This document shows positions 15,767 to 27,206 of a stretch of 64,000 bases of DNA, piece after piece. The stretch is from Alphaproteobacteria bacterium. Its GTDB lineage: Bacteria; Pseudomonadota; Alphaproteobacteria; GCA-2731375. The position numbers and the translations under genes are program-made. Positions within the stretch are counted from its first letter, which is position 1. Each line of letters begins with the position of its first letter. The stretch is from positions 352,001 through 416,000 of the forward strand of contig CBDDBZ010000037.1 of NCBI GenBank assembly GCA_965225945.1, written 5' to 3'. The notes below the pieces were generated by a model. That model saw only the letters and a list, made by a program, of their open reading frames with translations. It was not told where the DNA came from and ran no database searches.

Positions 15767-15834
15767 AAAAAGGGGTCAGAAAAAGGGGTCATTGTACTTT
15801 ATTCGGCGGAACGGCCGAAAAAGCAGAATGACCC
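15767..15834. repeat. REP-like imperfect hairpin forming the 5' exon of intron A
   Basis: Tandem AAAAAGGGGTCA, then arms GGGTCATT..TTCGGC / GCCGAA..AATGACCC, cut by the intron. Confidence 0.6.
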
Positions 15835-16193
15835 GTGCGCCGGGAGGCCGGCGAGGAGTAGCGGATGAGAGAGCCGTACGGTGAAGGATTAGCCATCCAC
15901 ACCGGCCCCGAGTCATGCGCCTGCGGTCCGCGAGGGCGAGGCGAAGCGTTGACAGGGGTACATGTGGGCTGGGTATTGAGCCGCGAAAAATGCGCATTCG
16001 AGGCGCCGACCCTGTGGGTCTATGGGGAAGGCCACACCGACGAGCGCGCATTGGCGAGCGCTCGGAGGGCCTTGCGCGGTCGTAGACCCCACGCACGCAT
16101 GGAAATCGCCTGAGCGGAAACCGGGAGATCTCTCGAGTGGCCGTCCTTGCGTTTGCGCGGTCCGCATCGGGAAGGCCCGAAGGGCCGTAGCCG

Positions 16194-16926
16194 ATGACGC
16201 ACGCTCGAGAGAAGTCAGATTTGCCCATAGTACCTGGGAAGCCGACGAACAAAGCCTTGTGCGAGGCGGCGGAGCCGGTGGAGGGAAGGGGCGGAGCCAA
16301 GGGGAACGTGGGTCAGCAACGCAGGCGCCGGACGCGGAGTCGGGAAAGCCTGTCACAGGGGCTGGAGCGCGTACGAGAAGCGGCGAGACGAGATGGGAAA
16401 CTAAAGTTCACCGCGCTGCTGCACCATGTCGATGTCGAACTCCTTCGGGCCTCCTACCTGGCGCTGAAGCGCGACGCGGCGCCCGGAGTGGACGGCATGA
16501 CGTGGCAAGAGTACGGCCAGGATCTGGAGCAGCGTCTCCCGAACCTGCATGGGCGGCTCCATCGGGGCGGCTACCGGGCTCTGCCGAGCCGGCGACAATT
16601 CATCGCGAAGTCGGACGGCTCGGCGCGGGCATTGGGGATCGCGGCCCTGGAGGACAAGATCGCCCATATGGCCGTGAGCACGGTGCTGAACCAGATTTAC
16701 GAGGAAGATTTCCTCGGGTTCAGCTACGGCTTCCGTCCGGGGCGCAACCAGCACGACGCGCTGGACGCGCTCGCGGTGGCGATCACCGAGCGCGAGGTGA
16801 ACTGGATCCTGGACGCCGATATATCCGGCTTCTTCGACTCATCCGACCAAAACTGGCTGAGAGGGTTCCTAGAGCACCGGATCGGAGATCGGCGTCTCCT
16901 CCGCCTTACGGCCAAGTGGCTGAAAG
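16194..16926 (+). pseudogene. Group II intron A reverse transcriptase/maturase, N-terminal part
   Basis: APGVDG, LGIAALEDK, SYGFRPGR, DADISGFFD; ends at KWLK where IS110 begins. Confidence 0.92.
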
Positions 16927-18108
16927 ATGGTATATCGCGGCGGCTGTGGCTGATGATATCAGGATGATGGCAGCCCCTTCACGCATGATCGATAAATCGG
17001 GGTCGCCCTGACCTCGAACATCGAGGAAGGAGCGATGACGATGGCACATTTCGTAGGTCTGGATGTTTCGGTGAAGGAGACGGCGGTATGCGTCGTCGAC
17101 GAGGTTGGCGAGGTGGTGTTGGAGCGGAAAGTGCCGACCGAGCCGGACGACATCGTCACGCTGCTGACCTCGATCGGCGTGGCCTATGGCCGGATCGGGA
17201 TCGAAGCCGGTCCGCTCTCGCAATGGCTGGTCAACGGTCTTGCCGCCGCCGGGCTGCCGGTTGTCTGCGTCGAGACTCGGCACATGAAAGCACTGCTCAA
17301 GGGGCAGCAGATCAACAAGAGCGACCGCAACGATGCGCGCGGCATCGCCCAGATGATGCGGGTCGGGCTGTTCAAGCCGGTGCATGTGAAGACCCTGGTT
17401 GCCCAGGAGCAGCGGATGCTGCTGACCAGCCGCAAGCTGCTCCAGAGAAAACTGCTCGACGTCGAGAACGATCTACGCGGGACGCTGCGCAACTTCGGTC
17501 TCAAGGTGGGCATGGTCAGCACCCGCGGGTACGAGGCGCGGATCCGCGAGCTGGTCGAAGACTTTCCGAAGCTGGCCGCTATCGTGGAACCGCTGCTCAC
17601 CGTCCGGCGAGTGATGCGCCAGCAATTCGCGGTCCTCCACAAAATGGTGCTCGACACGGTCCGCCATGACCCGGTCTGCCGACGGCTCATGACGGCACCC
17701 GGCGTCGGCGTGGTCGTCGCGCTGACCTACCGGGCTACCATTGATCAGCCGCAGCGCTTCGTTCACTCCAGGGCGGTCGGCGCGCATGTCGGCCTGACGC
17801 CGAAGCGCTTCCAGTCCGGCGAGATCGACTATGATGGTCGCGTGTCCAAGTGCGGCGACAGCATGCTCCGCACGATGCTGTACGAGGCCGCGCAGTCCCT
17901 CCTCACCCACGGCCGGAAATGGTCCTGGCTGAAGGCGTGGGGCATGCGAGTGGCCCAGCGACGTGGCATGCGCCGTGCCATCGTCGCCGTCGCTGTGGAA
18001 CGGCGTGCAAAGTTGACCCCTGTTGAGGGGTGATCGGCGTCCAAATTTGACCCCCTGAGCCTGGCTAGTCCAAGTCACCTCGTTTTTGGGCGGACGAGGT
18101 GGTGGGGG

Positions 18109-19620
18109 ATGTTGGTCGTGGAGACGATAGCGCGGATCCGGCGGGAGTATTTCGTCAAGGGGAAGCCGATCAAGGAGATCGTGCGGGACGTGAAGGTCTC
18201 GGGCAACACGGTGCGCAAGGTGATCCGTTCGCAGGCGACGGCGTTCACCTACGACCGGCGGGTCCAGCCGATGCCGAAGCTGGGGCCGTGGATGGCCGAG
18301 CTGGAGCGGATGCTGGAGGCCAACGAGACCAAGTCGAAGCGGGAGCGGCTGACGCTGCTACGGATCTCCGAAGCCCTCGAGGGTCTGGGCTATGGCGGCG
18401 GCTACGACGCGGTGCGGCGCTACGCCAAGGCGTGGCGGTGGCGCCGTTCGGCATCGACGGCGCAGACCTATGTGCCGTTGGTGTTCTCGCCGGGCGAGGC
18501 CTATCAGTTCGACTGGAGCCACGAGTACGTGGTGCTGGCGGGGGTGACGACCAAGGTCAAGGTCGCGCACGTCCGGCTGTGCCACAGCCGAATGTTCTTC
18601 GTCCGCGCTTATCCGCGCGAGAGCCAGGAGATGGTGTTCGACGCCCACGACCGGGCATTCCGGCTGTTCCAGGGTGCCTGCCGGCGAGGCATCTACGACA
18701 ACATGAAGACGGCGGTGCAGACCGTCCTCATCGGCAAGGAGCGCGCGTTCAACCGGCGCTTCGTGCAGATGTGTGGCCACTACCTGGTCGAACCGACAGC
18801 ATGCACGCCGGGAGCGGGATGGGAGAAGGGGCAGGTCGAGAACCAGGTCGGGATCATCCGCGGTCGGTTCTTCACCCCGCGGCTGCGCTTCAAGACCTAC
18901 GACGAGCTCAACGCCTGGCTCTTGGACCAGTGCGTCGCCTACGCCCGGCGTCATCCCCACCCGGTGTTCAAGGACAGGACTGTCTGGCAGGTGTTCGAGG
19001 ACGAGCGTCCGTCCCTGGTCGGCTATCGCGGGCCGTTCGACGGCTTCCACGCGGTCCCGGCGTCGGTGTCGAAGACCTGCCTGGTGCGCTTCGACAGCAA
19101 CAAGTACAGCGTGGCGGCGCGCGCCGTCGGCCGTCCGGTCGAGGTCCATGCCTACGCCGATCGCATCGTCATCCGCCAGGACGGCGAGATCGTCGCCGAG
19201 CATGCCCGGCGCTTCGGCCGCGACCAGACCGTCTATGACCCGTGGCACTACGTGCCCGTGCTGGCGAGGAAGCCCGGTGCGCTTCGTAACGGCGCGCCGT
19301 TCAAGGACTGGGCGCTGCCCGGCGCCCTGGGTCGCGTGCGCGTCCGGCTCGCCGGCCACGACGACGGCGACAGGCAGATGGTCGAGATCCTCACCGCCGT
19401 GCTGGCGGATGGGCTGGCGGCGGTGGAGGCCGCCTGTGCCGAGGCGCTCGCTGGCGGCGTGTGCAGCGCCGACGTCGTGCTCAACATCCTCAATCGTCGG
19501 CGCCAGCCGTCCGAGACGGCGCCGATCCCGACGCCCGCGAACCTGCGTCTTCGCTTTGAGCCGGTGGCCGATTGCACCCGCTACGACCGCTTGAGGGGGG
19601 TCGGCCATGGAGCGCCATGA
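18109..19620 (+). CDS. istA: IS21 transposase IstA
   Basis: [19 protein letters not shown]. Confidence 0.95.
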
Positions 19621-20335
19621 GGTCCTGGAGATGATGGCCGCACTCAAGCTCGCCGGCATGCGCGACGCGTTCGACGAGGTGCTCGCCGACGGCCTCAAGC
19701 GCCAGCATCCGATGCAGCGAATCATCGGCGAGCTGTTGAAGGCCGAGATCGCCGACAAGCAGGCGCGATCCATCAAGTACCAGATGAGTGGCGCCAAGCT
19801 GCCGCTGGCCAAGGAGCTGGCCGACTTCGACTTCACCGACACCCCGGTCAACGAGCCGCTGGTCCGCGAGTTGGCGGTCGGCGGCTTCCTGGCCAACCAG
19901 CGCAACGCCGTGCTGATCGGCGGCACCGGCACCGGCAAGAGCCATCTCGCCGTCGCCATCGCGCGGGCCTGCATCCGCGATGGCGCCCGGGGCCGCTTCT
20001 TCAACGTCGTCGACCTGGTCAACCGGCTCGAGGCCGAAGCCCGCGCCGGCCGCCAGGGCCGGCTCGCCGATCAGCTGGCCCGGCGCGACCTCGTCATCCT
20101 CGACGAGCTCGGCTACCTGCCCTTCGCCCAAACCGGAGGCCAGCTGCTGTTCCACCTCGTCAGCCGGCTCTACGAGCGCACCTCGATCATCGTCACCACC
20201 AACCTGACCTTCGGCGAATGGCCGTCCGTCTTCGGCGACGCCAAGATGACCACCGCGCTCCTCGATCGTCTGACGCACCACTGCGAGATCATCGAGACCG
20301 GAAACGACTCCTGGCGCTTCAAGAATCGGTCCTAA
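19607..20335 (+). CDS. istB: IS21 helper ATPase IstB
   Basis: [23 protein letters not shown]. Confidence 0.95.
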
Positions 20336-20697
20336 AGGCAACCGATCCACCTGCCGCCCGGTCGCCCAGGTGGGCCCACAGGAACCTCCCACGCGCGGTC
20401 CGCCGCCAGCCGCGTGGTGGGCGCGTCGGCCCGCGCGCGGGCCCCTCCTATGGACTACCTGTACGACCTCCGCCGTGCATCCCCAAAGGGGTCAACATTG
20501 CACGCCGATAGGGGGTCAATGTTCAACGCCGATTGACACCGTCGCGAGGCGCCTGGCCGTAGTTCTGCACCGCATGTGGGTCGACGGCACCGAGTTCCGC
20601 TGGAGCAACGGCCCTGCTGACGCCGTCAAGGCGGCTTGAACCTTCGACTGTACTGACAAGGAGATCAACGAGTTCTGCTTAGGCAGAGAGATGTCCT

Positions 20698-20848
20698 CAC
20701 GGGGACGACGGGTGGGGTGAGTTCGTAATGTCGGTAGACCCTGCCGCTGACCGGCGGCAAGGACGCGCGAAAGATTGAACCGCCTCATCCTCTGATCCCA
20801 TCATGAGGTGGCCACGCGCCAACCTCGAAGAGAAGCAAGAGCCCCGTG
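20698..20848 (+). ncRNA. Putative IS1111 bridge/seek RNA with target- and donor-binding loops
   Basis: Outer stem CACGGGG/CCCCGTG; segments TAATGTCGG and GAAAG match the target flanks, ATCCCATC and AGAGAAG match the donor junction; each pair flanks a hairpin. Confidence 0.75.
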
Positions 20849-20857
20849 CGGCAACAT

Positions 20858-22197
20858 GATTGAGCAACCTGATGTGTGGAAATTCGGAACGCCGTTGATC
20901 AGTCATCCTCTGCTTTCCAAGTGATGTAGGGTTTTTCGGTGGTTTCCCATTTCTCGTCGATTTCGACGAGGATGGCGGTGACCAGGCGTTCGAGCGAGGC
21001 CTCGTTGGGAAAGACCCTGACCTTTACGGTGCGGCGCTTGATCTCCTGCTGGATGGATCGCTCCATGGGGTTCGAGGTTCGCATGCGCTTTTGGTGGCGC
21101 TCGGGCAGGGCGAAGACGGCGAGGCCCTCGGGGATCGCCGCCTCCAGCCAATCGGCGAGCTTGGGGGCGCTATCGCGGTAGGCCGCCACCAGGTGGCCCA
21201 GCTCGGCCTCGGCGGCCTTGCCGTCGGCGGCATTCCAGACCCGGCGCAGCTCCTTGCCGATGGCCTTTCGGATGGCGAGGTTGGGGGCGTGATGGATGGC
21301 GTTTTGAGCCAGATGGTACTGACAGCGCTGCCAGACGGCGCCGCCGAGGACGGCCTTGCGCGCGGCGCCGAGGCCTGGATGATCATCGGAAACGATATAG
21401 GCGACACCGCGCATGCCACGGGCAACCAGGGTCTCCAGGAAGGCGCGCCAGTGCACTTCGGCCTCGGAGAGCGCACAGGAAACACCGAGCACCCGGCGGC
21501 GCTGGTCGGGGCCGATGCCGATCACCGAGAGCACGGCGGCGTCGCGCACCACGCCACCCTCTCGGACTTTCTCATAGCGCGCGTCGAGGAGCAGGTAGCG
21601 GATCTCGCCCAGCGGCCGGTTGCGCCAGGCATCCAGCTCCCCATCCAAGAGCTTGGCGGCGCGGCTGACCTGGCTCGACGACAGGCTCTCCAGGCCGAAC
21701 TCGCGCATCACCGCCTCGGCGTCACGGGTGGAGACGCCTTTGATATACATCTCCGCCACGGCCAGCATGACAGCGCGGCAGGAGCGCCGTCCGCGCTCCA
21801 GGGCTTGGGGGTAAAAAGGCGCCTCATGACCGGCGGTCTTGGGAACCTCGAGCCTCACCGTACCGGCCGGGGTGTCGATCTTCTTGGGTCTGGTGCCGTT
21901 GGCGTATCCCCGCCGCTCGGGCGTGCGCTCATAGTGGCCGGCGCCCAAGAACCTCTCCCGCTCGATCCGCATGGCGAGATTGAAAAGGCCGGCGAAGACC
22001 GTCGCCATGTTCTCGCTACCGCCTTCGATCAATTGTTCCACCAAAGCCTCGACAGCGCTATCCTGGTCTTTCCGCATACTGGTTCTCCATGTTTGTTTGG
22101 ACGCTTTCATGGATAACCAAAATGACGGATCGCCCCGCGCCGGGGTATACCCCGGCGCGGGGCGAAGCCAAATTTCCAGACCTCACGCTACACAAGC
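20858..22197 (-). mobile_element. IS256-family element inserted in the IS110 right end
   Basis: Imperfect IRs of about 30 bp; 8-bp target duplication GGCAACAT (20850-20857, 22198-22205). Confidence 0.92.
20899..22077 (-). CDS. IS256 transposase
   Basis: GVSTR, LDARYEKVR, SDDHPGL, WQRCQYH, RTSNPMER. Confidence 0.93.
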   Translation of the reverse strand: MRKDQDSAVEALVEQLIEGGSENMATVFAGLFNLAMRIERERFLGAGHYERTPERRGYANGTRPKKIDTPAGTVRLEVPKTAGHEAPFYPQALERGRRSCRAVMLAVAEMYIKGVSTRDAEAVMREFGLESLSSSQVSRAAKLLDGELDAWRNRPLGEIRYLLLDARYEKVREGGVVRDAAVLSVIGIGPDQRRRVLGVSCALSEAEVHWRAFLETLVARGMRGVAYIVSDDHPGLGAARKAVLGGAVWQRCQYHLAQNAIHHAPNLAIRKAIGKELRRVWNAADGKAAEAELGHLVAAYRDSAPKLADWLEAAIPEGLAVFALPERHQKRMRTSNPMERSIQQEIKRRTVKVRVFPNEASLERLVTAILVEIDEKWETTEKPYITWKAEDD

Positions 22198-22285
22198 GGC
22201 AACATCCGCCAGTGCGGAACGACGTGAAGAAGGAATATGGCATGACGTAACCAGAAAGGGCTTGACCGAGGACGCGATAGAGAAG

Positions 22286-23066
22286 CCGGCATTATGCAAG
22301 ATGGCAAACTCACGGTCCCGGAGCAGGGGACGCCACAGGGCGCGGTGCTCTCACCGCTGCTCTCCAACGTCTACCTGCACTATGTCCTGGACTTGTGGGC
22401 GCACCAATGGCGTCGGCGCCATACCCACTGCGACATGGTCATCGTCCGCTACGCGGACGACTTCGTCGTGGGCTTCGAGTACCGGGAAGACGCGCTTGCC
22501 TTCCGGGCGGCATTGGAGGAACGCTTGCGGGCTTTCGGCCTCGCGCTGTTCGCGGAGAAAACCCGGCTCATCGAGTTTGGGCGGCACGCCGCGAAAAGTC
22601 GGAAGGGCCGAGGCGACGGCAAGCCGGAGACGTTCGACTTCCTGGGCTTCACGCACATCTGCGCGAAGGACCGGAAGGGACGGTTCCAACTGCGACGCAA
22701 GACGCGGCGTAAGCGCATGGGGGCGAAGCTCGGGGAGATCAAGCGCGAACTCCTCCGGCGACGGCATCAGCCAATCGCCGAGCAGGGCCGCTGGCTGGCA
22801 TCGGTGGTGCGAGGCTACTTCGCGTACTTCGCCGTGCCGACCAACGCTCCGGCCCTGAATGCCTTCCGCTATCAGGTCGCCCGGTTCTGGCTGAAAGCGC
22901 TCCGGCGCCGCAGCCAGAACGACCGCACGACCTGGAAGGTCTTTGCCAAGCTGGTCGAGCGCTGGCTTCCGCCAGTGACGATCCTCCATCCCTGGCCGTC
23001 GAAACGCTTCTACGTCAAATACCCGAGGCAGGAGCCCGGTGCATTAGCAGTGCACGCCGGGATCTG
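22286..23066 (+). pseudogene. Group II intron A reverse transcriptase/maturase, C-terminal part (no endonuclease domain)
   Basis: GTPQG, VRYADD, FDFLGF, HPWP; the frame runs into domain V. Confidence 0.92.
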
Positions 23067-24947
23067 GTGCGCCAGGCGAACTGGCAGAAGGTAGGGGGTG
23101 CAAGTCCCCCGGAACGAAGGAGTAACCGAACCACGTTTCTCCGCGAGCCGTGCGTTGGCTCCCGTGAGGGGGCAGGCGAAGCGTCGGTAGCGGCATGGAT
23201 GGGCAGGGCTATTGAGCACCGTAAAAGCGATGGTCCGGGGTGCCGAGGCTTTCAGATCGGTCGAAGGCAATATCGCAGGCGTCGTTTTGGTGAGATGTCG
23301 GCGAGCCCCGCGGTGTCAGAGAACCCATGCACGTTCGCACGCCTTCTGTTGGGACCCTGGGAGGTCTTCAAACTGCCCCGGTTGTCGTAAAGGGGCCGCG
23401 TAGGGAATGGAGAAAACCGAAGCCTATGATGAACGGTTTGAAGAAGTCGGATGAGGCCATACGACCTGTGAGGGCGGCGAACAAGGGAGCGCGAGCTTCT
23501 GCGGAGTCGCCGGAGGAAAGGGCCTCAACCAAGGGGAATCCGGATTGCCAAAGCACGCGCCGAACCCAGTGTCGGGTAAGCGTGCCACAGGCGGCGGCCC
23601 GGATACGGAAAGCTGCAGAGAGAAACCCGAAGGAACGTCTCACTGCGCTCTTCCACCACATTACGCCGGACGCGCTCGGTGCGGCCTACTTCGCATTGAA
23701 GAAGGACGCAGCAGCCGGTGTCGACGGCGTTACGTGGGACATGTACGGCGAGGGTCTGGATGAGCGCCTGCTCGACCTGCACCGGCGCCTGCACAGAGGG
23801 GGAGCGTACCGGGCGCCGCCGGTTCGGCGGGTAGAGATACCCAAGCCGGACGGGGGGACACGACCGCTCGGGATCGCGGCGCTGGAGGACAAGGTCGTCC
23901 AGAAGGCGGTTGTGGATGTGATCCTGACACCGATCTACGAGGTGGTGTTTCTTGGCTTCAGCTACGGGTTCCGACCGGGGCGGGGGGCGCACGATGCGCT
24001 CGATGCCCTGGCCTTCGGGATAAAACGGCGCAAGGTCAGCTGGATAGTCGATGCAGACCTCCGGGCGTACTTCGACACGATCCCGCGGGATTGGTTGATC
24101 AGGTTCCTAGAGCACCGCATCGGAGACAGGCGGGTCATCCGTCTGATCTGGAAATGGCTGAACGCCGGCGTCATAGAGAGTGGGTCATGGGCAGATACGG
24201 GTATGGGCACGCCGCAGGGGGCAATAGTCTCCCCCGTCTTGGCGAACGTGTTCCTGCATTACGTGCTCGACTTGTGGTTCCACAAGAAATGGCGCCCGAA
24301 CGTCCCGGATGGCGAAGCGATCATCGTCCGTTACGCTGACGATATCGTTGTCGGGTTCCAACACAAGCGGGATGCGGAGCGGTACCTCCGCGACGTTCGG
24401 GAGAGGCTGGCCCGGTTCGGTCTCAGCCTCCACCAGGACAAGACCCGCCTCGTGGAGTTTGGCCGGTTCGCGGATTTGAACCGGCGCCAGCGCGGGGTGG
24501 GCAAGCCGGAGACTTTCGACTTTCTGGGCCTCACGCACTATTGCACGACGACCCTGAGAGGACGCTTTCGGCTTGGTCGCAAACCGGTCGCCAAACGGGT
24601 CAACAGGACCCTGGCGCGCATCGACGAGGTGCTCCGCAAGCGCTGGCACCACGACATCTGGGAAGTTGGTAGGTGGCTGGGGCGAGTCTGCAATGGCTGG
24701 CTCAACTACTTTGCCGTCCCAGGGTCAGGCCGGTTCATCCGTGCGTTCCTCCGCAGGCTGCAACGCCGGTGGATGCGGGCGCTACGCCGCCGGTCCCAGC
24801 GAGCCCGATTTAGTTGGAAGCGACTGGAGCGCATGACCGAAATCCTGTGGCCACGCGCCTCCATCCGCCACCCATGGCCGGACCAGCGGTTTGCCGTCAA
24901 GCACCCGAGGTAGGAGCCGGATGGTTCAACGACCACGTCCGGATCTG
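23067..24947 (+). mobile_element. Group II intron B copy 1 (class E-like); domain VI missing
   Basis: GTGCG at 23067 directly after intron A domain V; EBS1 CAGATC at 23253-23258; own domain V at about 24914-24945. Confidence 0.9.
23426..24913 (+). CDS. ltrA: Group II intron reverse transcriptase/maturase (intron B1)
   Basis: AAGVDG, PKPDG, SYGFRPGR, GTPQG, RYADD, FDFLG; no HNH domain. Confidence 0.95.
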   Translation: MMNGLKKSDEAIRPVRAANKGARASAESPEERASTKGNPDCQSTRRTQCRVSVPQAAARIRKAAERNPKERLTALFHHITPDALGAAYFALKKDAAAGVDGVTWDMYGEGLDERLLDLHRRLHRGGAYRAPPVRRVEIPKPDGGTRPLGIAALEDKVVQKAVVDVILTPIYEVVFLGFSYGFRPGRGAHDALDALAFGIKRRKVSWIVDADLRAYFDTIPRDWLIRFLEHRIGDRRVIRLIWKWLNAGVIESGSWADTGMGTPQGAIVSPVLANVFLHYVLDLWFHKKWRPNVPDGEAIIVRYADDIVVGFQHKRDAERYLRDVRERLARFGLSLHQDKTRLVEFGRFADLNRRQRGVGKPETFDFLGLTHYCTTTLRGRFRLGRKPVAKRVNRTLARIDEVLRKRWHHDIWEVGRWLGRVCNGWLNYFAVPGSGRFIRAFLRRLQRRWMRALRRRSQRARFSWKRLERMTEILWPRASIRHPWPDQRFAVKHPR

Positions 24948-26878
24948 GTGCGCCAGGCGAACTGGCAGAAGGTAGGGGGTGCAAGTCCCCCGGAACGAAG
25001 GAGTAACCGAACCACGTTTCTCCGCGAGCCGTGCGTTGGCTCCCGTGAGGGGGCAGGCGAAGCGTCGGTAGCGGCATGGATGGGCAGGGCTATTGAGCAC
25101 CGTAAAAGCGATGGTCCGGGGTGCCGAGGCTTTCAGATCGGTCGAAGGCAATATCGCAGGCGTCGTTTTGGTGAGATGTCGGCGAGCCCCGCGGTGTCAG
25201 AGAACCCATGCACGTTCGCACGCCTTCTGTTGGGACCCTGGGAGGTCTTCAAACTGCCCCGGTTGTCGTAAAGGGGCCGCGTAGGGAATGGAGAAAACCG
25301 AAGCCTATGATGAACGGTTTGAAGAAGTCGGATGAGGCCGTACGACCTGTGAGGGCGGCGAACAAGGGAGCGCGAGCTTCTGCGGAGTCGCCGGAGGAAA
25401 GGGCCTCAACCAAGGGGAATCCGGATTGCCAAAGCACGCGCCGAACACAGTGTCGGGTAAGCGTGCCACAGGCGGCGGCCCGGATACGGAAAGCTGCAGA
25501 GAGAAACCCGAAGGAACGTCTCACTGCGCTCTTCCACCACATTACGCCGGACGCGCTCGGTGCGGCCTACTTCGCATTGAAGAAGGACGCAGCAGCCGGT
25601 GTCGACGGCGTTACGTGGGACATGTACGGCGAGGGTCTGGATGAGCGCCTGCTCGACCTGCACCGGCGCCTGCACAGAGGGGGAGCGTACCGGGCGCCGC
25701 CGGTTCGGCGGGTAGAGATACCCAAGCCGGACGGGGGGACACGACCGCTCGGGATCGCGGCGCTGGAGGACAAGGTCGTCCAGAAGGCGGTTGTCGGGAT
25801 CGCGGCGTGGAGGATCCTGACACCGATCTACGAGGTGGTGTTTCTTGGCTTCAGCTACGGGTTCCGACCGGGGCGGGGGGCGCACGATGCGCTCGATGCC
25901 CTGGCCTTCGGGATAAAACGGCGCAAGGTCAGCTGGATAGTCGATGCAGACCTCCGGGCGTACTTCGACACGATCCCGCGGGATTGGTTGATCACGTTCC
26001 TAGAGCACCGCATCGGAGACAGGCGGGTCATCCGTCTGATCTGGAAATGGCTGAACGCCGGCGTCATAGAGAGTGGGTCATGGGCAGATACGGGTATGGG
26101 CACGCCGCAGGGGGCAATAGTCTCCCCCGTCTTGGCGAACGTGTTCCTGCATTACGTGCTCGACTTGTGGTTCCACAAGAAATGGCGCCCGAACGTCCCG
26201 GATGGCGAAGCGATCATCGTCCGTTACGCTGACGATATCGTTGTCGGGTTCCAACACAAGCGGGATGCGGAGCGGTACCTCCGCGACGTTCGGGAGAGGC
26301 TGGCCCGGTTCGGTCTCAGCCTCCACCAGGACAAGACCCGCCTCGTGGAGTTTGGCCGGTTCGCGGATTTGAACCGGCGCCAGCGCGGGGTGGGCAAGCC
26401 GGAGACTTTCGACTTTCTGGGCCTCACGCACTATTGCACGACGACCCTGAGAGGACGCTTTCGGCTTGGTCGCAAACCGGTCGCCAAACGGGTCAACAGG
26501 ACCCTGGCGCGCATCGACGAGGTGCTCCGCAAGCGCTGGCACCACGACATCTGGGAAGTTGGTAGGTGGCTGGGGCGAGTCTGCAATGGCTGGCTCAACT
26601 ACTTTGCCGTCCCAGGGTCAGGCCGGTTCATCCGTGCGTTCCTCCGCAGGCTGCAACGCCGGTGGATGCGGGCGCTACGCCGCCGGTCCCAGCGAGCCCG
26701 ATTTAGTTGGAAGCGACTGGAGCGCATGACCGAAATCCTGTGGCCACGCGCCTCCATCCGCCACCCATGGCCGGACCAGCGGTTTGCCGTCAAGCACCCG
26801 AGGTAGGAGCCGGATGGTTCAACGACCACGTCCGGATCTGCGCGGGGGGTGCGCAGCAATGCGCATTCCTACCGTAAC
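24948..26878 (+). mobile_element. Group II intron B copy 2, complete
   Basis: GTGCG at 24948; near-identical to copy 1; domain V, then domain VI CGCGGGGGGTGCGCAGCAATGCGCATTCCTACCGTAAC ending in AC. Confidence 0.92.
25307..26806 (+). CDS. ltrA: Group II intron reverse transcriptase/maturase (intron B2), 4 aa longer than B1
   Basis: Same motifs as B1; VVDVIL replaced by VVGIAAWRIL. Confidence 0.92.
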   Translation: MMNGLKKSDEAVRPVRAANKGARASAESPEERASTKGNPDCQSTRRTQCRVSVPQAAARIRKAAERNPKERLTALFHHITPDALGAAYFALKKDAAAGVDGVTWDMYGEGLDERLLDLHRRLHRGGAYRAPPVRRVEIPKPDGGTRPLGIAALEDKVVQKAVVGIAAWRILTPIYEVVFLGFSYGFRPGRGAHDALDALAFGIKRRKVSWIVDADLRAYFDTIPRDWLITFLEHRIGDRRVIRLIWKWLNAGVIESGSWADTGMGTPQGAIVSPVLANVFLHYVLDLWFHKKWRPNVPDGEAIIVRYADDIVVGFQHKRDAERYLRDVRERLARFGLSLHQDKTRLVEFGRFADLNRRQRGVGKPETFDFLGLTHYCTTTLRGRFRLGRKPVAKRVNRTLARIDEVLRKRWHHDIWEVGRWLGRVCNGWLNYFAVPGSGRFIRAFLRRLQRRWMRALRRRSQRARFSWKRLERMTEILWPRASIRHPWPDQRFAVKHPR

Positions 26879-27206
26879 TGTCCGCCTCCAGGATCGCGTC
26901 GACGATGCCGGTGAACCCGTCCAGCTTGGGCCGCCGGACCGGCTTCGTCCGCCGGTAGCCCGGCGGCGCCGAGTAGCTCAGCATCTTCTTCACCGTCCGG
27001 CGGTCGATGCCGAATCGTCGGCCCGCCTCGTGATGGCTCAACCCCTCATCGACAACCGCCAGACGAACCGCTGCATGGAGCTCCACGCCGTACATCTCCT
27101 GCCCCTCACCACAACCGACAAGGGGCTATAGGTGGCGCATTTTTGCGCCGCCGCGACCGGACCGCCCGGCCGCTCCGCGTGGTGCATTATTCCTCCGCCG
27201 TTAACA
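26879..27206 (-). mobile_element. IS21-family left end with the istA 5' fragment, truncated at the intron 3' end
   Basis: TGTTAACGGCGG terminus at 27206; MYGVELHAAVRLAVVDEGLSHHEAGRRFGIDRRTVKKML...RPKLDGFTGIVDAILEAD. Confidence 0.85.

Follow-up and report, generated by a model that had tools for sequence, protein, structure and literature searches.

In Methanosarcina acetivorans, group II introns have homed repeatedly and site-specifically into other group II introns, giving nests of up to five levels (Dai and Zimmerly 2003, as recounted in PMC4424553 and PMC2882425). Insertion into these nests is described as balanced by deletion through homologous recombination, and the nest as a perpetual homing site (PMC4424553). 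The twintrons of Thermosynechococcus elongatus have been presented as a route of intron proliferation in which introns lacking an open reading frame (ORF) coexist with ORF-bearing partners (Mohr, Ghanem and Lambowitz 2010, PMC2882425), and the "hypermobile" plant mitochondrial intron cox1i1149g2 is reported to have invaded its own copy as well as other introns (Zumkeller, Gerke and Knoop 2020, PMC7049729). Head-to-tail integration has been obtained experimentally with EcKTE56.groEL, in which the pairings of the intron-binding sites (IBS) survive the first insertion (Gomes et al. 2025, PMC12584367). Here we describe a bacterial group II intron, intron B, from a stretch of 64,000 nt of an Alphaproteobacteria bacterium (assembly GCA_965225945.1, contig CBDDBZ010000037.1, positions 352,001-416,000 of the forward strand). 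This whole stretch is referred to as the window, and coordinates are window positions unless another contig is named.

One copy of B in the window stands immediately 3' of domain V (DV) in a host intron, H, and a second copy immediately 3' of the DV of the first. Comparison of sequences within this genome and with others supports the view that B targets the junction between DV and domain VI (DVI) in introns of its own class, its own copies included.

Intron B and its two copies in the window

Both copies of B begin with GTGCGCC (the GTGCG 5' end), at 23067 and 24948, immediately 3' of GGATCTG. The 23066/23067 junction reads ...GCCGGGATCTG|GTGCGCCAGG and the 24947/24948 junction reads ...GTCCGGATCTG|GTGCGCCAGG, so that the sequence at both junctions bears out an initial annotation of this DNA, which had placed the copies at the DV end first of an "intron A" and then of B itself. 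The outer copy, B1 (23067-24947, forward strand), runs from domain I through DV and the linker J5/6 and is without a DVI of its own; it holds the loop of exon-binding site 1 (EBS1) at 23253-23258, the ORF of the intron-encoded protein (IEP) at 23426-24913, DV at 24914-24945 and the linker TG at 24946-24947. The inner copy, B2 (24948-26878, forward strand), is complete, with EBS1 at 25134-25139, the IEP ORF at 25307-26806, DV at 26807-26838, the linker UG at 26839-26840 and DVI at 26841-26878, in which alignment to RF00029 places the bulged branch A at 26871, 7 nt from the end.

Each copy covers the full RF02005 model (group-II-D1D4-6, positions 1-225; gathering score 49) at 163.7 bits, over 23101-23325 in B1 and 24982-25206 in B2. 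The last 74 bases of B2 (26805-26878), comprising DV, J5/6 and DVI, are predicted to fold as two adjacent hairpins and align with RF00029 over its full length at 35.4 bits, short of the gathering score (40); a search of the whole genome with RF00029 recovered none of the B copies and returned only two weak matches elsewhere. The IEP of B1 is intact (495 amino acids) and matches TIGR04416, the group II intron reverse transcriptase (RT)/maturase family, at 345.2 bits (cutoff 300). Its Pfam matches are RVT_1 (128.9 bits) and GIIM (21.8 bits, just under the cutoff of 23) only, with no endonuclease domain, and its ORF stops at 24913, directly 5' of DV. The solved structures closest to the IEP are group II intron RTs. 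B is a bacterial group II intron of the D1D4-6 structural class whose RT/maturase is without an endonuclease domain. In its parts it is an ordinary endonuclease-less group II intron, and the unusual part is its target.

The AGC triad is present in the DV of B, and in this intron class the triad G stands opposite A rather than the usual U (23034/23062 in H, 24916/24943 in B1 and 26809/26836 in B2; GGAUC against GGUUC in the RF00029 consensus). In the DV remnant of a third intron of this genome, intron D, AAC stands opposite G, and the two arrangements together may represent covariation at a non-canonical pair.

The two window copies can be told apart. B1 has 394G>A, 501A>C and 1105C>G, three variants that also occur in copies on contigs C38 and C33, and B2 has the consensus at these positions; the ORF of B2 contains a private 12-nt insertion near 25795-25812 that is missing from the other 18 copies in the genome and from contig X2 record 21. 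Independent libraries also contain B 5' ends. A contig of an RNA library (X14 record 6, 864 nt, 24296-25159) spans the self-nest junction 24947/24948 by 652 and 212 bases with 0 differences, cover that is not in itself proof of transcription. A contig of a run labelled "DNA?" (X2 record 18, 23052-23136) lies on the 5' end of B and the few bases preceding it with 3 differences, and its upstream loose end reads as a D-type DV.

Nested arrays across the genome

The genome contains 19 B bodies, and all 14 of those with a readable 5' end follow GG(A/G)TCTG. Eight of these junctions lie after B's own DV (two on C31, one on C33, B2 in the window, C38:143957 and three at C38:558-562 kb), two after the DV of H (B1 in the window, and C24) and one after the DV remnant of intron D (C34:400136); three are at non-intron GGGTCTG sites (C20, C31:260175 and C34:328597). 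The proposal that every copy carries a new target also holds, with GGATCTG at the end of B's own DV and eight junctions at which that site is followed by a further copy.

Insertion of a complete intron at the J5/6-DVI boundary of a copy already in place should leave DVIs in tandem, and this footprint is found. Tandem 38-nt DVI units lie 3' of the innermost copy at C38:142 kb (6 units), C33 (5), C38:556 kb (4), C34:398 kb (3, followed by D's own DVI), C39 (3) and C35 (2, in an array interrupted by the contig end), and four loci, the window included, have a single DVI. The order of parts (D1-DV, D1-DV, ..., D1-DV-DVI, DVI, DVI) is that of a nest, and outer-intron sequence stands on either side of the inner intron at C24 (H as host), at C34 (D as host) and, with B itself as host, at C38, C33, C39 and C35. 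The largest arrays have at least four bodies, and the longest DVI run has six units. What had been called a tandem is really a nested arrangement. Genome-wide, 27 DVI units compare with 19 bodies, the DVIs outnumbering the bodies at C33, C34b, C38a and C39, an excess that would fit later loss of bodies via recombination between the 1.9-kb repeats.

The copies are closely similar. Seventeen of the 19 differ from the consensus in 0-5 alignment columns, and in B2 the private insertion block is the sole difference, while the C20 copy differs in 53 columns and the C34a copy in 91, mostly insertions. Such low divergence suggests recent spread and an intron that may be active or recently active. As in the window, outer and inner copies differ from one another at C31, C33 and C38:142 kb (C38a), and since they carry different shared variants they appear to be separate insertions from different source copies.

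Some of these loci have further features. The outermost of the three copies at C31 (C31:260175) begins TTGCGCC, with G1 changed to T, and the inner copies are intact; by the usual rules this change should block the outermost copy's own 5' splicing. At C24 an ORF-less mini-intron of the same class (80350-80986, reverse strand, L148; RF02005 168.9 bits) sits six bases into the DVI of H (TGCGGG|...|GGGCGTGGGG...), where its loop at the EBS1 position, with CCCGU, faces the 5' exon GCGGG. Its place within H's DVI suggests that a second lineage also aims at the DV/DVI region. Past the five B DVIs on C33 lies a scrambled mosaic (304405-304820, L150), in which 5' pieces of the mini-intron are interleaved with partial B DVI and which looks like a recombination scar.

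Target recognition by EBS1

The hexamer CAGATC, at 23253-23258 and 25134-25139, lies in a hairpin loop that is unpaired in the RF02005 model, and it pairs 6/6 with GATCTG. That this is the EBS1 loop, as initially proposed from its complementarity to GATCTG, is confirmed by its position and by covariation among relatives. For the latter, 79 related loci were fetched with the B protein, of which 43 introns were scorable and gave 26 unique exon/loop pairs. The loop 6-mer pairs with the last 6 exon bases at 5/6 or better in 22 of the 26 pairs (14 of them at 6/6), against 2 of 104 cases in a control with shifted exon windows, and the assignment is made because of this difference. Among the four misses, two are copies standing head to tail behind another copy and one is probably a false 5' end.

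The 19 unique targets share G at position -6 (19/19) and A or G at -5, followed by TCTG, with a weak preference for CGC at -12 to -10 (11, 12 and 12 of 19). The motif GGATCTG followed by TGCGGGGGG is kept class-wide, across IEP identities of 50-99%; the RF00029 consensus at the GGATCTG position is GGUUCUG. The genome has 2259 GGRTCTG sites and 165 sites of the form CGY-N2-GGRTCTG, 21 of them DV ends, and B occupies 11 of the 21 DV-end sites compared with 0 of the other 144. This bias exceeds chance and may mean either that recognition extends further along the DV 3' strand or that proximity to its own locus favours self-insertion.

Relatives in other genomes

Among the 33 genomes of the family, B was found in two, the present one and G028. 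Five other records (G028, OZ253470, OZ220465, CAZNYE and metagenome contig L154) have close relatives of B at DV|DVI junctions of foreign introns. In G028, one copy has the DV of another full-length intron as its 5' flank (L055) and another has a foreign DVI as its 3' flank (L067). The single copy in OZ253470 (93%; L073) lies between the DV and the DVI of an ORF-less host intron, with both flanks present. In OZ220465 (81%), copies at L078, L079, L081 and L101 follow the DV of an ORF-degenerate host with the host DVI downstream, this DVI having been identified at L079, L080, L081 and L101. At two of the loci in this record ORF-less derivatives fill the space from the full copy to the host DVI in head-to-tail order, with junctions of intron 3' end against intron 5' end at L078 and L081, and the 5' flanks of these head-to-tail copies, CGTAAC or CGTACC, pair with EBS1 at only 2/6. 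The copy in CAZNYE (L102) is followed by a foreign DVI, and that in L154 is preceded by a foreign DV. L154 is the relevant one of four matches to a looser junction pattern in metagenomes, L151-L153 being unrelated sequences.

Recognition has shifted in OZ219747 (85%), in which EBS1 is now CGCATC and the copies occupy non-intron GGATGCG sites. No distant relative (IEP identity at most 70%, with 5' ends found by script) was seen after a DV, and a pattern match at L144 is a different hairpin. The ORF-less or ORF-degenerate hosts at L073, L079 and L101 begin TTGCGCC, not GTGCGCC, and can stand head to tail with a B-like intron in each DV|DVI junction. A host of this kind and its B-like intron may form a composite mobile unit that relies on the RT of the inner intron.

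The 3' flank of the window array

The window array contains two B bodies and one DVI, where a clean nest would leave three DVIs (those of B2, B1 and H). Sequence of an outer intron is accordingly present on the 5' side only, as the DV of H and then that of B1, and no outer DVI lies 3' of 26878. The array is followed by a truncated N-terminal fragment of an IstA-like (IS21-type) gene (26879-27095, reverse strand), a 72-amino-acid ORF alignable over its whole length to the N-terminus of the IstA located at 18109 (28% identity, E 0.005). An intron-less IstA-like allele occurs in contigs of all four runs (4/4), reading ...GCGCGGCACGTCCGGATCCG and then continuing exactly from 26879; one of these contigs (X8 record 28) has 99 bases of the intron-less flank followed by 26879-26927 with 0 differences. 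The empty site, CACGTCCGGATCCG|T, has 12 bases in common with the 3' strand of B's own DV (CACGTCCGGATC) and pairs with EBS1 at 5/6. Because the allele breaks at 26878/26879, and because the site resembles the DV strand and pairs with EBS1, the right flank is read as a separate target of B. The window array is thus probably recombinant, a nested array in H having crossed over with a B copy that lay in an IstA-like element. The nearest IstA-like homologue in the genome (on C3, 82% identity) is different at the site.

In G028, two B copies lie at the start of another IS21 istA, and IS21-type elements seem to be recurrent secondary targets.

Proposed mechanism and alternative explanations

We consider it likely that B homes to the DV|DVI junction of its own intron class, nesting both in relatives and in itself, and that recombination reshapes the resulting arrays. 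The EBS1 loop, 5'-CAGAUC, pairs with G(A/G)UCUG, made up in this class of the conserved DV 3' strand and the two-base J5/6 linker, and because EBS1 pairs there B would retrohome precisely at the J5/6|DVI boundary, in related introns and in copies of itself alike. As for other endonuclease-less introns, insertion would proceed by reverse splicing into DNA, guided by the EBS1-IBS1 pairing, and then by fork-primed reverse transcription. Entry into a B copy would divide that copy into D1-DV and a stranded DVI, and repeated entry would build arrays nested like Russian dolls, with the pattern (D1-DV)n, D1-DV-DVI, (DVI)n. Bodies would be lost or gained as these 1.9-kb units recombine homologously, and the 38-nt DVI repeats would stay behind as footprints. 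For the window we infer that B1 entered H and B2 entered B1, and that a later crossover with the B of an IstA-like element swapped the 3' side, which would leave two bodies, one DVI and no host DVI. B might also disable competing introns, as initially proposed, but a nest of this kind could in principle be resolved through sequential splicing, and several of the hosts are ORF-less or already broken.

More tentatively, J5/6|DVI might be the dedicated ancestral homing site of the EBS1-CAGAUC clade, which would make B an intron hyperparasite on a sequence that its hosts need for catalysis. B, being of the same class as its hosts, could then not avoid carrying its own target, and runaway self-nesting would be checked by recombination only. 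Tandem DVI arrays would be a countable record of past invasions, and ORF-less hosts may need the RT/maturase of the inner intron, host and guest forming one composite mobile unit.

Several observations weigh against this mechanism, or against its generality. Non-intron sites predominate in the closest relatives: of nine readable 5' junctions in G028, eight are non-intron (two of them the same site at the istA start), and in the metagenome-assembled genome CBDHDN, whose IEP is 99% identical, all five are, mostly at GATCTG and once at GAGCTG. The claim that B is specialised on the DV-DVI linker does not hold as first put, and the tabulation of 5' flanks called for along with it has a divided outcome. 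The three intron types entered in this genome, the 11 of 14 junctions at DVs and the five other records agree with it, and the three of 14 non-intron junctions here, together with those in G028 (8/9) and CBDHDN (5/5), do not. Self-nesting was not seen in G028 (9 junctions) or CBDHDN (5), despite an identical or 99%-identical intron with a self-target; the tandem-DVI pattern had 0 matches in G028 and G027, and the exact self-nest junction pattern had 0 matches in metagenome contigs. B's own DVI starts with C, while T occupies position +1 in 11 of the 15 known 3' exons, and the self-site is for this reason suboptimal. Among the exon-binding sites, target pairing is assigned for EBS1 alone. The eight self-junctions need not be independent events, since the four identical copies at C38:556-562 kb (C38b) could have multiplied by unequal crossing-over. 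For the window, the array is without the DVIs expected of a nest and requires an extra recombination step, and the reciprocal product, with the other IstA-like half beside a B 5' end, is not among the 14 B 5' flanks. Finally, no splice joints were found in three RNA-library runs and one "DNA?" run, all of them contigs and as such blind to rare spliced forms.

Some of these points would be met by local tandem duplication without any retrohoming, through slipped-strand or unequal recombination in which the GGATCTG preceding B engages the one that closes its DV. Such an event predicts exactly two bodies with one DVI, as in the window, and unequal crossing-over fits the four identical C38b copies. 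It cannot, however, yield tandem arrays of 2-6 DVI units, nor can it account for the DV|B junctions of other genomes or for those in three different types of host intron. B1 and B2 moreover differ at three sites, the variants of B1 being common to copies at other loci, and the 3' flank of the window array is a separate bona fide target of B with an intron-less allele. We therefore regard local duplication as unlikely.

Less probable still is nesting at the RNA level, in which B would reverse splice into the RNA of another intron at the IBS1 match, the composite then being copied into cDNA and recombined into the DNA. Guidance would come from the same EBS1-IBS1 pairing, and co-transcribed targets, such as B itself, would be favoured. 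Insertions at non-intron sites and the precise empty site fit ordinary DNA targeting, though they do not separate the two levels.

That the window array is an artefact, a path through the repeat graph joining B copies of different loci, we judge very improbable, even though B is a 1.9-kb repeat of more than 99% identity, four contigs end inside B copies, and the left and right flanks of the window array appear to derive from different original loci. The B copies differ from one another, some 50 near-identical IS21 copies of 2.5 kb are resolved within long contigs of the same assembly, the separate RNA-library contig spans the self-nest junction with 652 and 212 bases, and DV|intron junctions occur in other assemblies as well. 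The least probable of all is head-to-tail re-insertion at the 5' exon/intron junction, a mechanism described for EcKTE56.groEL (Gomes et al. 2025, PMC12584367) that fits the OZ220465 arrays of complete and ORF-less copies (B') but predicts an intron 3' end (GTAAC) against an intron 5' end, seen at 0 of 14 junctions here, where all eight B-to-B junctions join DV to a 5' end with no DVI between.

Lariat read-through or circle junctions were considered as a source of the tandem copies and rejected, since they should place the junction at the branch A or at the intron's 3' end and not behind J5/6. Circularly permuted introns (PMC8637638) are not relevant here, their domain order being different.

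Host intron H and the insertion-sequence pile

The 5' part of H, comprising D1-D3 and the N-terminal part of the RT ORF, lies at 15835-16921 on the forward strand (RF02005 15868-16089, 177.9 bits), and its ORF (16194-16967) is an RVT_1 match in Pfam. The loop at the EBS1 position of H is GGGUC and its 5' exon ends in GACCC. The 3' part (22197-23066, forward strand) carries the C-terminal half of the RT (RVT_1 match of the ORF at 22294-23031), followed by DV (23032-23064) and the linker J5/6 (TG, 23065-23066), and is colinear with C29 and C24. The initial annotation had treated this 3' part as a separate element, "intron A". That reading has to be withdrawn, because contig C29 (42052-45332) is colinear with H and joins 15821-16921 to 22196-23003 across one IS110-type element; the two parts are halves of a single intron that starts at 15835 and is divided by insertion sequences (IS). 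The DVI of H is absent from the window. At C24 the order is the DV of H, then B, then H's own DVI (TGCGGG...).

The pile that divides H (16922-22196, no strand assigned) was delimited by Pfam matches and by many near-identical copies elsewhere in the genome, and its family names are Pfam-based. An IS110-type element in two pieces (16922-17993 and 20539-20857; DEDD_Tnp_IS110 and Transposase_20) is interrupted by an IS21-type element (17994-20538; rve and IstB_IS21), and an IS256-type element (20858-22196; Transposase_mut, transposase on the reverse strand) follows. Near-identical copies number about 50 for the IS21 and about 30 for the IS256 genome-wide. The pile inside H amounts to three levels. 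The same IS110 insertion in H is seen again at C24 and C29, a recurrence that suggests either a duplicated region or an element inserting site-specifically.

Comparison with known systems

Class C (IIC) introns are hairpin-targeting elements that have a IIC ribozyme and recognise a short IBS1 after a stem-loop. As DV is itself a hairpin, we considered a likeness to them; compared by description, B would seem to differ in matching RF02005 and in having an EBS1 pairing of 6 bp with clear covariation. The inner intron of the Euglena psbF twintron may lie in domain V. In the main texts that our literature search covered we found no account of homing to a DV|DVI junction or of tandem DVI footprints, and an earlier description may exist beyond them.

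The nearest parallel is M. acetivorans, with which B shares repeated homing into introns (eight self-junctions here) and, as it would seem in our case, the loss of copies by recombination. To go by the title of the original paper, the targets in M. acetivorans lie in the ORFs of related introns, whereas B targets J5/6|DVI of the ribozyme core, in its own copy too. It is because the target is this boundary, carried by its own copy, that the footprint of B consists of tandem 38-nt DVIs. In T. elongatus, ORF-less inner introns lie between the first two ATGs of the outer ORF, in domain IV, and self-insertion is not described in the main text (PMC2882425); B, in contrast, bears an ORF and enters between DV and DVI, often in ORF-less hosts. 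The self-invasion of cox1i1149g2 is, in the published description (PMC7049729), a single old and degenerate event at outer-intron position 652 (ii652g2), with an unspliced "zombie" inner intron and with neither a recursive array nor a DV|DVI target.

In EcKTE56.groEL, as set out in the main text of that report (PMC12584367), two complete introns stand head to tail at a host gene, whereas B enters inside the older copy at its DV end; integration of the EcKTE56.groEL type would explain the head-to-tail B' arrays of OZ220465. The Trichodesmium twintron (PMC4649490), with its inner intron in domain I, offers no parallel to B.

The system described here may serve as a test bed for target choice in endonuclease-less introns, for the splicing order of nested ribozymes, for the tolerance of a large insert between DV and DVI, and for the means by which self-targeting retroelements avoid runaway growth. 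The intron copies would at the same time be recombination substrates that rearrange an IS-saturated genome. Intron homing into other introns, nested arrays and a single old case of self-invasion had been published before. What intron B adds is a target at the boundary of two hairpins of the catalytic core, conserved throughout its class, at which its own copies have been struck repeatedly (at least four bodies and six DVI units), leaving a footprint of 38-nt DVIs that can be counted.

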